Position numbers and translations under genes: made by a program. Positions 27,022 to 49,017 of a DNA stretch of 64,000 nt are shown here, piece by piece. Within the stretch, counting starts at the first letter, position 1. Every line of letters begins with the position of its first letter. The stretch comes from Clostridia bacterium. GTDB taxonomy: Bacteria > Bacillota > Clostridia > Oscillospirales > CAG-272. Under the pieces are notes generated by a model that had not been told where the DNA came from, searched no databases, and was given only the letters and a program-made list of their open reading frames with translations. The stretch spans positions 14,093 to 78,092 of the forward strand of contig JAFVOQ010000034.1 in assembly GCA_017505785.1 (NCBI GenBank), read 5' to 3'.

Positions 27022-28290
27022 TCAGTCCTTTTTCTTACCGCAGTTTTGGCAGAAATTGCCGCTGCTCTGCGTGCCACACTCCGAGCAGAACCATTTATCC
27101 CCCGAAACGGGTGCTTTTTCGCCGCATTCCGAGCAGAATTTGCCACTGGCACTGTTGCCGCATTTGGGACAGACCCAGGCGGTAGCGGCACTTGGCTGCT
27201 TCGCGCCGCATTCCGAGCAGAATTTGCCTTCGTTTTGTGTGCCGCACGCGCAGGTCCAGCCGTTTACTTTTGCGGCTTTCTTTGCCGCATCACGCTCCAT
27301 TGCGGCGCGGTTGGTTTCGGAAAAGGCACCAAAGCTACCTGCAGTGTTCATGCCCATACCCATGCCCATAAAGGCGGTAGTTGAACCGCCGGCGGTATTT
27401 CCTGCCGCCTCAAAGCCGCGTGCGATCGCACCCTGTACATAGCCCTCGCGCACGGCAGCATCGCCGAGCATGGCACCTTGGTTGCGCATGTTGATCAGCT
27501 TCTTGGACTCCTCGTCGTAAGAAACGCTGGCAATGCCTACCGACAGCACCTCAAAGCCGCGCAGTGCCTTCCAGTCATTATCAAGCTCGTTTGCCATGTA
27601 GGCGGAAAGCTCGCGAGATCTTGAGGCAACGTGCGAAATGCGAATGCCATCCTGTGACATGCGGTTGATCGCCGCTTGCAGCGCATCAAGAAACTCTGAA
27701 AGATATTGCTCGTTGATATCGTTGATATCCACCGTGGTGGCACTGCGCGGAATTGCCTCGGTATAGAATTTCAGCGGATCGGTGATTTTAACGGAATATG
27801 TACCGAATGCGCGCAGGAACAGCTCGGAATTGTAAAAGTTATCAAAATAATTTACAGGGTTGCGCGTGCCGAATTTAATGCCCTTGATCTCCTGCAAATT
27901 GATAAAATATGCCTTTTGAGAGGAGGAGGGAACACCGCCGTATTTGATACGGCTGAAGGTTTCTGCAAGCGATTTGCCAAACTGCCCTGCAAAAAGTGAG
28001 GGCATAGCGGAATTGTCAACCTTGTAATAGCCGGGCTCAGCCGTGAAATCCACTACCTTACCGCCGTCAACCAAAAGCATGAATTGATTGTCGTATACGT
28101 GGATGATCGAACCGTTTGAAATGGTATCCTCTGTGCCTTTTTTATTGCTGCCCCGCTTGTCATTTTTTCTAACCTTTACGCCTTTACAAAAAACGGTGGT
28201 GTCCTGCATGACACCGGCCTCTATTACCTCCTGCCAGGTGTCGGCAAGCCCACCTCCAATGGCGGAAAGTGTTGCTTTGATAATGCCCAT
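27022..28290 (-). CDS. SPFH/Band-7_1 (virion-core-like, YdjI-like) protein with three C-terminal zinc ribbons
   Basis: The N-terminus MGIIKATLSAIGG..SNGSIIHVYDNQFMLLVDGGKVVDF fits the PF13421-type SPFH family as I recall it. The C-terminus has 3 x (CxxCG..FCxxCG). AAGGAG RBS. Confidence 0.7.
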   Translation of the reverse strand: MGIIKATLSAIGGGLADTWQEVIEAGVMQDTTVFCKGVKVRKNDKRGSNKKGTEDTISNGSIIHVYDNQFMLLVDGGKVVDFTAEPGYYKVDNSAMPSLFAGQFGKSLAETFSRIKYGGVPSSSQKAYFINLQEIKGIKFGTRNPVNYFDNFYNSELFLRAFGTYSVKITDPLKFYTEAIPRSATTVDINDINEQYLSEFLDALQAAINRMSQDGIRISHVASRSRELSAYMANELDNDWKALRGFEVLSVGIASVSYDEESKKLINMRNQGAMLGDAAVREGYVQGAIARGFEAAGNTAGGSTTAFMGMGMGMNTAGSFGAFSETNRAAMERDAAKKAAKVNGWTCACGTQNEGKFCSECGAKQPSAATAWVCPKCGNSASGKFCSECGEKAPVSGDKWFCSECGTQSSGNFCQNCGKKKD

Positions 28291-28336
28291 GGTTCAAATG
28301 CTCCTTTTATTATATAATTATTTAAGTCATGCAATT

Positions 28337-28597
28337 AACAAAGCGGCGACCTTGCGGCAAAACGCAAAGCCGCCGCAGCGACAAGATCGCGCATTGCGCG
28401 AAAATACAGTGTGACCCGCCGAGCCGTGTAACCGATATATCAGAACCCTGTTTTCACAAGGCGGTGCCCTGCCGAATGTTTTACTGCTCCCAGCGTCCTT
28501 TGCCCTGTCGAGACAAGTCGATCGATGCAGGGAAAGGGAGGTCTGCAAACCGCATTCGGACTGCGTTCGGGCTCCATTTCATACGTGTCGGCTCCAC
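28337..28597 (-). ncRNA. Unclassified structured leader/sRNA upstream of the SPFH operon
   Basis: GC-rich ORF-free spacer. Possible promoter TTGTAA-18-GATAAT (28633-28604). Hairpins at 28497-28537 and 28387-28401. A 34-nt GC hairpin at 28343-28376 followed by UUUGUU lies ~50 nt before the RBS. Confidence 0.4.
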
Positions 28598-28638
28598 CAA
28601 CCGATTATCACGCACTAAGCAGGCTGTTTACAAAAAAG

Positions 28639-28932
28639 TTATTGATCGTGGTCGATCTCGGAGGCAAACATGTCGTCAAAGTAGTCGGCAACGTCGTCAA
28701 ATTCGTCGTCGTCATCAATGGTAACAAGGCTCTCCTCGCCATTTTCCACAATGGTTTTGAGAATGGTGTATTCACACACCTCACCGTTTTCCTCGGCATC
28801 CTCTACGGCGATCATGGCATAATACTTGATGCCGTTTTTCTCACAGGTGCCAATGAGCTCAAACTCGTGCTCATTGCCTTCCTCATCCTGCAGGGTGTAA
28901 ATTTCAACTTCGTTCATTTCTTTTTCGGTCAT
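28639..28932 (-). CDS. DUF1292 (UPF0473) family acidic protein
   Basis: Start at M24 of the tracked ORF. The pattern EEGNEHEFELIG...YAMI and the acidic D/E-rich tail are typical of DUF1292. Confidence 0.75.
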   Translation of the reverse strand: MTEKEMNEVEIYTLQDEEGNEHEFELIGTCEKNGIKYYAMIAVEDAEENGEVCEYTILKTIVENGEESLVTIDDDDEFDDVADYFDDMFASEIDHDQ

Positions 28933-29021
28933 GGTTAAAACCTCACTGTTCGTAGTATTTCCGCACACCGGGAAAAATATGTGGCAAGGGCAATGGGGCA
29001 ACCCTCGCTTTCTTCAATAAA

Positions 29022-29050
29022 AGTATATCATGTTTTTGGGGGAATGTCAA
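29022..29050 (-). promoter_or_regulatory. Sigma-A type promoter of the DUF1292 gene
   Basis: On the minus strand: TTGACA, 17-nt spacer, TATACT. Confidence 0.6.
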
Positions 29051-29199
29051 TCAAATTTTTCGGACCCCTTGATGCAAATTATAACAAATAGCAGCGCCGC
29101 AAAGAGAAAAACCGCGCGGCACTGCTAAAATTGAAATAAAAACATCAAAAAATGGAAAAAAATGTTTTCAAAAATGGAAAATCCAATCTCTAATTTGGA

Positions 29200-30795
29200 T
29201 TATTGGCGATCAAAATCCTCCAATACCAAGGAGGGGTTGTTGTCAAGTGCCCATTTGATACTCCACTGCCCGGTAAACAGCAGATAGCTTTTGCCGCGCA
29301 CATCGGTAACACGGCGAGTGTCGGAAGCCAGATTGAGCTTGGCGAGATCCCCACCAAAGTCCTTGATGCGTTGAATGTATTGGAAGGGGAGATCGCGCTT
29401 GATATATTCTACGCCGTACTCCGATTTCATGCGGAATTGCAGCACGTCGTATTGGAGCGTACCGATCACGCCCACAAACACGCGCTCGTAGCCACTGTCG
29501 GGCTCAAAGAAGATGCGAATGGCACCCTCCTGTGCAATTTGGTTCATGCCCTTTTGGAATTGCTTGCGCTTCATCGAGTCGATCTGCTCTACCATGGCGA
29601 AATGCTCGGGCGCAAAGGTGGGGATGCCCTCAAAGGCAAGCTTGCGCTCCTTGGTGCATACTGTGTCGCCGATCGAAAATACGCCGGGGTCGAATACGCC
29701 GATGATGTCACCTGCATATGCCTCGTCAATGCCCTCTCGTGCTTCTGCCATCATTTGCTGGGGCTGCGCCAGCTTAATGGGCTTGCCTGCCTGCATGTGA
29801 TAGTATTCCTTGCCGCGCTCAAACTTGCCCGAGCAGATACGCAAAAAGGCAATGCGGTCGCGGTGTGCCTTGTTCATGTTTGCCTGGATCTTGAATACAA
29901 ACGCCGAAAAGCGGTCATCAAACGGATCTACCGTTTCCGTTTCGGTTGTGCGGGGCAGAGGCGTGGGGGTCAGCTGCAAGAAGTATCTGAGAAAATCCTC
30001 AACACCGAAGTTGTTCAGTGCCGATCCGAAAAATACAGGCGAGAGCTTGCCTTTTGCAATGGCATCAAGGTCAAAATCAAAGGAAGCACCGTCAAGCAGC
30101 TCAACCTGCTCCACAAGCTCCTCTCGAAGGTTTTCACCGATCAGCTCGTCAAGCTTTTCGGTGTCGGAAATGTCGCATGCGATCGAGGAAAGGCGGCTCC
30201 TGCCGCGGTGTGCATCGTCAAAGGCGTGAATGGCGCGCTCACGGCGGTCGTAAACACCCTTAAAGGTCACGCCGCAGCTTATGGGCCAGTTCATGGGGTA
30301 TGTGCCAATGCCAAACTCACGCTCGAGCTCGTCGAGCAGATCAAAAGGGTCACGTGCCTCGTGGTCGAGCTTATTAATAAAGGTAAAGATCGGGATGCCG
30401 CGCTTGGCGCAAACATGAAAGAGCTTGCGCGTTTGAGGCTCGATACCCTTTGCCGCATCGATCACCATAACCGCGCTGTCGGCTGCCATGAGGGTGCGGT
30501 AGGTGTCCTCCGAGAAGTCTTGATGCCCGGGGGTGTCAAGAATATTGATGCAATAGCCGTTATATTCAAATTGAAGCACCGATGAGGTCACCGAGATGCC
30601 GCGCTGCTTTTCGAGCTCCATCCAGTCAGAAACGGCGTGGCGATCACTTTGCTTGCCCTTAACCGAGCCTGCGGATTGAATGGCACCGCCGTAAAGAAGG
30701 AGCTTTTCTGTCAGGGTGGTTTTACCTGCGTCGGGGTGTGAGATGATCGCAAAGGTGCGTCTGCGCTCTATTTCTTTTCTTGTTCTTTCGTCCAT
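29200..30795 (-). CDS. prfC: Peptide chain release factor 3
   Basis: RRRTFAIISHPDAGKTTLTEKLLLYGGAI G-domain. 531 aa, RF3-like throughout. Confidence 0.95.
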   Translation of the reverse strand: MDERTRKEIERRRTFAIISHPDAGKTTLTEKLLLYGGAIQSAGSVKGKQSDRHAVSDWMELEKQRGISVTSSVLQFEYNGYCINILDTPGHQDFSEDTYRTLMAADSAVMVIDAAKGIEPQTRKLFHVCAKRGIPIFTFINKLDHEARDPFDLLDELEREFGIGTYPMNWPISCGVTFKGVYDRRERAIHAFDDAHRGRSRLSSIACDISDTEKLDELIGENLREELVEQVELLDGASFDFDLDAIAKGKLSPVFFGSALNNFGVEDFLRYFLQLTPTPLPRTTETETVDPFDDRFSAFVFKIQANMNKAHRDRIAFLRICSGKFERGKEYYHMQAGKPIKLAQPQQMMAEAREGIDEAYAGDIIGVFDPGVFSIGDTVCTKERKLAFEGIPTFAPEHFAMVEQIDSMKRKQFQKGMNQIAQEGAIRIFFEPDSGYERVFVGVIGTLQYDVLQFRMKSEYGVEYIKRDLPFQYIQRIKDFGGDLAKLNLASDTRRVTDVRGKSYLLFTGQWSIKWALDNNPSLVLEDFDRQ

Positions 30796-30999
30796 GTTTT
30801 TTATCCTTAAATTTTAGTCGTTCTATATTTTACCGCATTTTCGCGAATAATGCAAGAGCAGAAAGAAAAAATGTATTTATAAGGTAGTCAAGGCTCTTTT
30901 TTAAGCATGTCAAGGCTTTTATTTACTGTGTTTTGCAAAGATGACAAACAGCCCAAAAAACGAGTGCTATTTTTGTGTATTATTTTATTGAAAAAGCAC

Positions 31000-31028
31000 T
31001 TGCCTTTTTTCGCAACTCATGGTATACT
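31000..31028 (+). promoter_or_regulatory. Sigma-A type promoter of nrdDG
   Basis: TTGCCT, 17-nt spacer, TATACT. Confidence 0.55.
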
Positions 31029-48744: not shown

Positions 48745-49017
48745 TATCTCCTTAGCAAAACAAAATAAAAACGCCCCCCTGCCACACGGCAAGAGGGCGA
48801 AGGATCGCGGTACCACCTCTGTTACCGCCCGGGGGCGGCATCTCAAACGGCATGCGCCGTGCTCGCGTAACGGGCGAAACCGTCGCAGCCTACTAAGGCA
48901 GTCCCTTTCGGTGCGCAACTCGCGAATGTACTTGGGCAAGCGCACCCTCCGTTTTACACCAACCAACGGCTCTCTTTGCGGCGCATGCTCGCTTACTCTT
49001 TCGGTCACAGTCTTTAC
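48745..49017 (-). promoter_or_regulatory. T-box riboswitch leader (Tyr specifier) of tyrS
   Basis: On the minus strand: AGAGAG motif; candidate specifier UAC followed by A (plus 48928-48930); T-box AACAGAGGUGGUACCGCG (about 48806-48823); terminator 48772-48799 followed by a U run. Confidence 0.85.

Follow-up and report, generated by a model that had tools for sequence, protein, structure and literature searches.

The small 6S RNA imitates an open promoter and restrains RNA polymerase, and its short product RNA (pRNA) in Escherichia coli is AUCGGCUCAG. Maturation of 6S-1 RNA from longer precursors is established in Bacillus subtilis (PMC10578484), and the 6S RNA of Clostridium acetobutylicum shows several processed bands on northern blots (PMC3879012). 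Functional, processed 6S RNAs are thus known from Clostridia; in Clostridium difficile, where multiple 6S species also occur, the 6S RNA co-migrated with RNA polymerase and pRNAs were detected (PMC10117727). The 6S gene, ssrS, has been reported together with protein-coding neighbours: ssrS-ygfA of E. coli is described as a dual-function transcription unit (Hsu et al. 1985, as cited in PMC8414754), and the gene order rarA-ssrS-uspA is found in lactic acid bacteria (PMC8414754). The window analysed here is the whole 64-kb stretch of DNA from a Clostridia bacterium. We are highly confident that its minus strand carries an ssrS gene (approximately 28409-28628) for a 6S RNA with a length of ~216-220 nt. 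The full-length match to Rfam family RF00013, the covariance model R1 described below and the covariation of the fold all point to this assignment. It means that the RNA is of a known kind, and is a new member of the 6S family with a score below the family threshold.

The gene lies in a spacer of 348 nt (28291-28638), between the stop codon of a DUF1292 gene (28639-28932, minus strand, 97 aa; Pfam PF06949, E 3.1e-15) and a gene for an SPFH/Band_7_1 protein with zinc ribbons (27022-28290, minus strand), which is located 3' of the spacer and is a neighbour only. DUF1292 proteins belong to the YrzB family and are uncharacterised acidic proteins. The prfC gene (RF3) is located at 29200-30795 on the minus strand, another zinc-ribbon protein gene follows beyond the SPFH gene, and every gene at the locus is on the minus strand. 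Comparison of the SPFH protein placed the window among Oscillospiraceae/Ruminococcaceae-type Clostridia MAGs. The C-terminal ~80 aa of this protein contain three invariant W-x-C-x2-CG-x4-G-x-FC-x2-CG zinc-ribbon repeats, and its homologues are labelled “virion core protein” in some NCBI records. The GC content of the spacer was 0.53-0.56 vs 0.31-0.43 in the adjoining spacers 29000-29224 and 30800-31024, which is matched with the original prediction of a GC-rich spacer among AT-rich ones. That prediction, made from the sequence alone, took the spacer for a riboswitch-like leader of the SPFH gene, in which a sensor domain would control the terminator hairpin at 28343-28376 and so the read-through into the SPFH gene. 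The structured domain, the terminator-like hairpin, the RBS and the gene do follow in this order on one strand, as such a leader would have them.

The spacer could also be suspected of encoding a protein, either in a 73-aa sense ORF (28327-28548, minus strand) or in the plus-strand antisense frames 28329-28724 and 28525-28938, and stop-free runs of 55-78 codons, chiefly antisense, are present in every orthologue. There are only three sense-strand ORFs in the spacer, with 73, 45 and 44 aa, but these are disrupted by stop codons or frameshifts in most orthologues, and indels of 1, 2, 4 and 5 nt are common. Substitutions follow compensatory base pairing and not third-codon-position variation. The plus-strand ORFs are antisense to the DUF1292 gene, and their translations are arginine-rich and of low complexity. 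Because no ORF is conserved among the orthologues and the substitution pattern is compensatory, a protein-coding spacer was rejected and its probability is practically nil; the earlier statement that 28291-28638 has no credible ORF is right.

A default Rfam scan of the whole window detected only a T-box leader elsewhere (RF00230, 48790-49017, minus strand, 104.9 bits), which is the sole gathering-level Rfam match in the window; the 6S RNA in the spacer was missed at its sub-gathering score. The lack of a gathering-level match at the spacer in the default scan would fit a riboswitch of the kind first proposed. When 28200-28750 was scanned with an E-value threshold and permissive filters, accepting E up to 10, 6S was the single match and no riboswitch or aptamer family was matched in this segment. 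The RF00013 (6S/SsrS) match extends over 220 nt at 28409-28628 of the minus strand and covers model positions 1-187, with 37.3 bits and E 4.7e-6, under the gathering score of 46.4 bits. The low score is largely explained by a 41-nt apical insertion and three mismatched terminal pairs. The original prediction reported that no 6S signature could be matched, which is wrong, since RF00013 matches over its full length. The Rfam search that it proposed thus gave a 6S match from end to end, with the reservation that the score is under the gathering score in the window and over it in orthologues. Several canonical 6S motifs align with the RF00013 consensus. GGAGCCGA precedes the 14 nt of the 5' bubble strand, the internal arm contains GGUUUGCAG and GCAGUAAA, and the 3' side has CACC-GCC...GGUUC. 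For the putative SPFH leader, this means that the supposed sensor domain is itself a full-length 6S match.

To place the sequence among relatives, 80 SPFH-anchored loci were taken from GTDB species genomes, which gave 81 sources including the window. At the syntenic sites, six orthologues scored above the RF00013 gathering score, with 57.7 (L002), 54.7 (L005), 50.4 (L047), 50.3 (L066), 47.6 (L003) and 47.2 bits (L006), and other syntenic orthologues gave full-length matches below the threshold (32.6-42.6 bits). The covariance model R1 was built from six syntenic orthologue sequences and the Rfam-type structure. It found one match in the 64-kb window (243.9 bits) and was positive in 19 of the 80 SPFH-anchored loci, each time on the gene strand upstream of SPFH. 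R1 joins the homologues to the window sequence by full-length matches with E from 1e-9 to 1e-63. Distant DUF1292-linked homologues found with R1 reached 74.8 (L128), 73.6 (L156) and 68.5 bits (L136) against RF00013, and 9 of 20 sampled DUF1292-linked homologues passed its gathering score (49.2-74.8 bits). In locus L047, a palindrome-like segment (184-285) also matched the mir-3158 model on both strands with ~39 bits, where the model threshold is 97 bits; this is almost certainly a chance hairpin or an inverted repeat.

The 6S-type fold was tested as 61 pairs against 500 shuffles, and in a slid-partner control the 3' partners were moved by 1-3 columns. In the model-fitted alignment of 20 orthologues (A4), 93.3% of cells were paired and 33 of the 61 pairs showed compensatory changes; the structure-blind MAFFT alignment of the same 20 sequences (A7) gave 89.3% and 31 of 61, and 52 distinct DUF1292-linked sequences (A6) gave 91.1% and 50 of 61. 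None of the 500 shuffles was as good in any of the three alignments, and sliding the partners brought pairing down to ~40% in all of them. Of the 61 pairs, 59 are present in the window sequence. The folding energy is modest compared with shuffled sequences (z = -1.85 for the 348 nt, z = -1.66 for the 220-nt core), so the evidence for structure is the covariation and not the energy. The rod maintained in evolution consists of a closing stem, a 14/15-nt central bubble, an internal stem and an apical hairpin. Conserved G-U pairs, such as the U-G found in 18 of 20 orthologues at two closing-stem positions, would be A-C mismatches on the opposite strand, and the RNA is therefore assigned to the minus strand.

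All parts of the rod are on the minus strand. The closing stem is formed by 28601-28624 and 28414-28435, and in its helices 1-2, pairing is 94-98% and 12 pairs are compensatory. On its bubble side, the short helix 3 (GGAGCC at 28590-28595 with GGUUCU at 28442-28447) is 90-91.5% paired. The central bubble has a 5' strand of 14 nt (GACACGUAUGAAAU, 28576-28589), unpaired in the Rfam consensus alignment, and a 3' strand of 15 nt (GCCUUGUGAAAACAG, 28448-28462), which can form a small CCUUG/CAGGG hairpin. This hairpin is 93% paired, one of its pairs shows compensatory change in 3 sequences, and it hints at an optional element of the fold. The internal stem beside the bubble, helix 4 (GGAGCCC at 28569-28575 with GGGCACC at 28463-28469), shows 100% pairing and 3 compensatory pairs, with C-G, A-U and U-A exchanges. 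RNAalifold proposed a different fold, in which the second GGAGCCC pairs with GGGUUCU and a CAGGGC/GCCUUG hairpin is formed. It was rejected: 266-296 of 500 shuffles reached the observed values, and changes in columns 67 and 68 are uncompensated in it, while they are compensated in the Rfam-type pairing. The long-range pairing of GAGCCG with CGGCUC (28421-28426) proposed earlier did not hold either. Its GAGCCG is actually at 28589-28594, 10 nt away from the position given for it (28579-28584), the pairing is found in 70.8% and reached by 259 of 500 shuffles, and there is no covariation. CGGCUC belongs to the 3' strand of the closing stem.

The 41-nt insertion relative to the RF00013 consensus is exactly the CCUUUCCCUG/CAGGGCAAAGG helix with its inner hairpin that the original prediction had located at 28497-28537 (minus strand), and its helices 8-10 covary. 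The apical loop has 10 nt (UCGACUUGUC, 28512-28521, minus strand; columns 127-136 of A4). Its core GACUUGUC is invariant in 20 of 20 close orthologues, while the stems covary freely. GACUUGUC recurs in only some distant relatives, and most of these lack the whole apical extension. The loop would be too far from the bubble (~45 base-pair equivalents) to act as a mimic of a -35 box, despite its UUGACU. The 41-nt apical module with the invariant GACUUGUC loop is thus clade-specific, and is a minor new point.

The molecule folds as a long imperfect double-stranded rod with a large central bubble. If the RNA works as other 6S RNAs, this shape would mimic an open promoter. The rod could then occupy the active site of the housekeeping holoenzyme, sigma-A RNA polymerase, and sequester the enzyme under low nutrients. 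When the NTP level rises, the polymerase would copy the 6S template and produce a short pRNA, predicted as 5'-GUCGGCUCCACCAA... with its start opposite C28587. The predicted template site is CC-N-AC(-A) in the 5' bubble strand, which is invariant across the 20 orthologues. In the Rfam alignment, GGAGCCGAC of the window corresponds to the consensus region that holds GAGCCGAU of E. coli. Within GAGCCGAU, U44, the start of the E. coli pRNA, is aligned with C28587, and from this alignment initiation is predicted opposite this invariant C. Positions 4 and 5 of the predicted pRNA GUCGGCUCC are GG, which has also been reported for verified pRNAs (PMC8414754). Synthesis of the pRNA would unzip the GGAGCC/GGUUCU helix, which by this analysis is probably the one disrupted in the process, and the RNA would refold and release the enzyme.

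Among the 81 SPFH-anchored sources, the RNA was present in 20, and all 20 have DUF1292 directly upstream; in the R1 search it was absent from all 61 SPFH loci without DUF1292. In a second set of 80 metagenome-contig loci anchored on DUF1292, R1 found the RNA directly downstream of DUF1292 and on the same strand in 60, and in 8 of the 20 misses less than 130 nt of downstream DNA was present. None of these 80 loci had SPFH within 2 kb. The DUF1292 stop codon is ~10 nt from the 6S 5' end in the window, and 5-30 nt in most loci. In one locus (L088), the 6S gene is followed after ~85 nt by a SAM riboswitch (RF00162, 2609-2694, 70.5 bits), so the gene 3' of 6S varies between lineages. The synteny across both sets of loci identifies the RNA as a DUF1292-linked 6S gene, and SPFH is an incidental neighbour in the clade of the window. 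The original prediction suggested comparing the upstream regions of SPFH homologues, as if the RNA went with SPFH; it goes with DUF1292 instead. These results also bear on the idea of an SPFH leader, as the RNA is found in exactly those SPFH-anchored sources that have DUF1292 upstream, is frequent at DUF1292 loci where SPFH is not near, and in L088 is followed by a SAM riboswitch in place of SPFH.

The intrinsic terminator of the 6S (or DUF1292-6S) transcript is located at 28337-28376 on the minus strand, with a 14-bp stem that contains 10 G-C pairs, followed by UUUGUU. The 34-nt GC hairpin at 28343-28376 with its UUUGUU, part of the original prediction, is present as described, and its 14-bp stem scores as terminator-like. 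In 19 of 20 orthologous loci, a GC hairpin with a U run separates 6S from SPFH; the sequences of these terminators are unrelated, and both the distance and the intervening hairpins vary freely. In the window, the terminator lies ~33 nt past the last conserved pair at the 3' end of the RNA. Because the sequence is unrelated among orthologues and the hairpin is ~33 nt away from the RNA, we regard it as a constitutive terminator and not as an expression platform; transcription would stop at 28343-28376, ahead of the SPFH gene. A riboswitch should keep its terminator coupled to the sensor, but here another hairpin stands between them, the sequence and spacing vary, and there is no conserved competition of terminator and antiterminator among the 19 orthologous loci. 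Every conserved nucleotide is explained by the 6S rod. A riboswitch-like control of SPFH is hence extremely improbable, and the clear Rfam match, which the original prediction had itself named as speaking against such a leader, is essentially what was obtained. What stood of that prediction is a structured non-coding RNA (“sRNA” in its title) with a terminator-like hairpin, and not the riboswitch-like SPFH leader.

The hairpin between the 6S 3' end and the terminator in the window, UCGCGC-AAU-GCGCGA, is present at 28387-28401 (minus strand), where it had been noticed before. Comparable small hairpins of other sequence are found in L001, L002, L004/L016, L006 and L011, and not in the remaining orthologues. 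The hairpin may be a 3'-processing or protective element. In L007 (2174-2500), 6S and SPFH are 336 nt apart, and the spacer holds two tandem copies of a structured repeat of ~115 nt (AAAATCGGCGC..TTACCC..CCTCGAAAGGTCGACACCTT..), which may be a small mobile or repeat element.

A weak promoter, TTGTAA-18-GATAAT, had been proposed at the 5' edge of the spacer. It does match 9 of 12 positions, but it lies inside the covariation-supported closing stem, whose 5' strand holds the supposed GATAAT -10 box. An RNA started there would be without the 5' side of this stem, so this is not the promoter of the RNA, and the conservation of GATAAT is explained by its pairing with GUUAC. In the 20 orthologues, no consistent promoter was found directly ahead of the RNA. 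The sole recurring upstream match, TTGACG-17-GACGAT, has a poor -10 box and was rejected as the DUF1292 coding motif FDD..ADYFDD. A candidate sigma-70-type promoter, TTGACA-17-TATACT (29022-29050, minus strand, 11/12, with TG), is located upstream of DUF1292. Since the RNA 5' end abuts the DUF1292 stop codon and there is no recognisable promoter between them, we infer that the 6S RNA is most likely co-transcribed with DUF1292 from 29022-29050 and then trimmed. Alternatively, 6S might be driven by a promoter hidden within the 3' end of the DUF1292 coding sequence.

Distant relatives are different in this respect. In L128, L119, L102, L123, L132 and L136, a clear TTGATT/TTGTAT-17-TATAAT promoter is found ~20-50 nt upstream of 6S, some with an extended -10 TG, and the gaps to DUF1292 are longer. 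There appear to be two modes of expressing the DUF1292-6S gene pair, one with an own promoter for 6S and one without. An RNA that starts just past a stop codon and has no own promoter is the typical layout of a 3'-UTR-derived sRNA, and the start 5-30 nt past the DUF1292 stop in most loci, with no own promoter, could suggest a base-pairing sRNA from the 3' UTR of the DUF1292 mRNA, which would act on other mRNAs and resemble 6S in structure only. But the RNA is like 6S both in sequence and in fold, this likeness is continuous through homologues up to 74.8 bits, and several distant relatives have their own promoter ahead of the RNA. Nearly the whole molecule is in the covarying rod, which is not the build of an sRNA with a seed: the only long conserved single-stranded stretches are the bubble and the loop at the apex. 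So we consider a base-pairing 3'-UTR sRNA very unlikely.

The candidate “orphan riboswitch” is therefore a housekeeping 6S RNA, and does not represent a new regulatory class. In the Oscillospiraceae lineage, RF00013 scores are sub-gathering (37.3 bits in the window, 32-43 bits in several relatives), and it means that standard pipelines would leave ssrS unannotated; with the conserved DUF1292 neighbour and model R1, the gene can be recovered simply. A minor new point is that DUF1292 and ssrS are linked widely in Clostridia. In a full-text literature search, with the likeliest survey papers outside its reach, there was no paper naming both 6S RNA and DUF1292. For a widespread protein family, the linkage gives a small lead that can be tested. 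A stronger proposal would be an obligate DUF1292-6S co-transcript, with a possible link of DUF1292 to 6S biogenesis or action and a sequence-specific partner of the apical loop, and this we regard as rather doubtful.

Compared with riboswitch leaders such as the T-box of the window (48790-49017) or the SAM riboswitch, the element is alike in having a structured domain, a GC hairpin with a U tract and a gene on the same strand. Unlike these leaders, it matches no riboswitch family, its terminator is uncoupled from the structured domain, and it is not linked with the downstream gene across genomes.

Compared with the 6S RNAs of RF00013 (E. coli SsrS, B. subtilis 6S-1/BsrA, and those of C. difficile and C. 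acetobutylicum), it shares a rod of ~200 nt with closing stem, central bubble of ~14/15 nt, internal stem and terminal loop, and the possible 3'-bubble hairpin. The length, strand and coding status are also matched with 6S RNA, as the RNA is non-coding, has a defined strand, and its 220-nt match falls in the range of ~180-220 nt. Consensus motifs are also in common: GAGCCGA borders the bubble at its 5' edge, the internal arm has GCA...GCC and GC..UAAA, and the 3' side has GGUUC. The pRNA predicted here, GUCGGCUCC, is similar to that of E. coli, AUCGGCUCAG. Different from the norm of the family are the score of 37.3 bits, under the gathering score of 46.4, and the 41-nt apical extension with its GACUUGUC loop, which is absent from most other 6S RNAs, including distant DUF1292-linked ones.

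With ssrS-ygfA and rarA-ssrS-uspA, the locus has in common that, within a lineage, the 6S gene keeps the same protein-coding gene beside it and on its strand. In arrangements of this type, the transcript can be shared with the neighbour and the 6S RNA is matured by processing. Unlike in these two cases, the partner in the window is an upstream DUF1292 gene, whose stop codon is only ~10 nt from the RNA.
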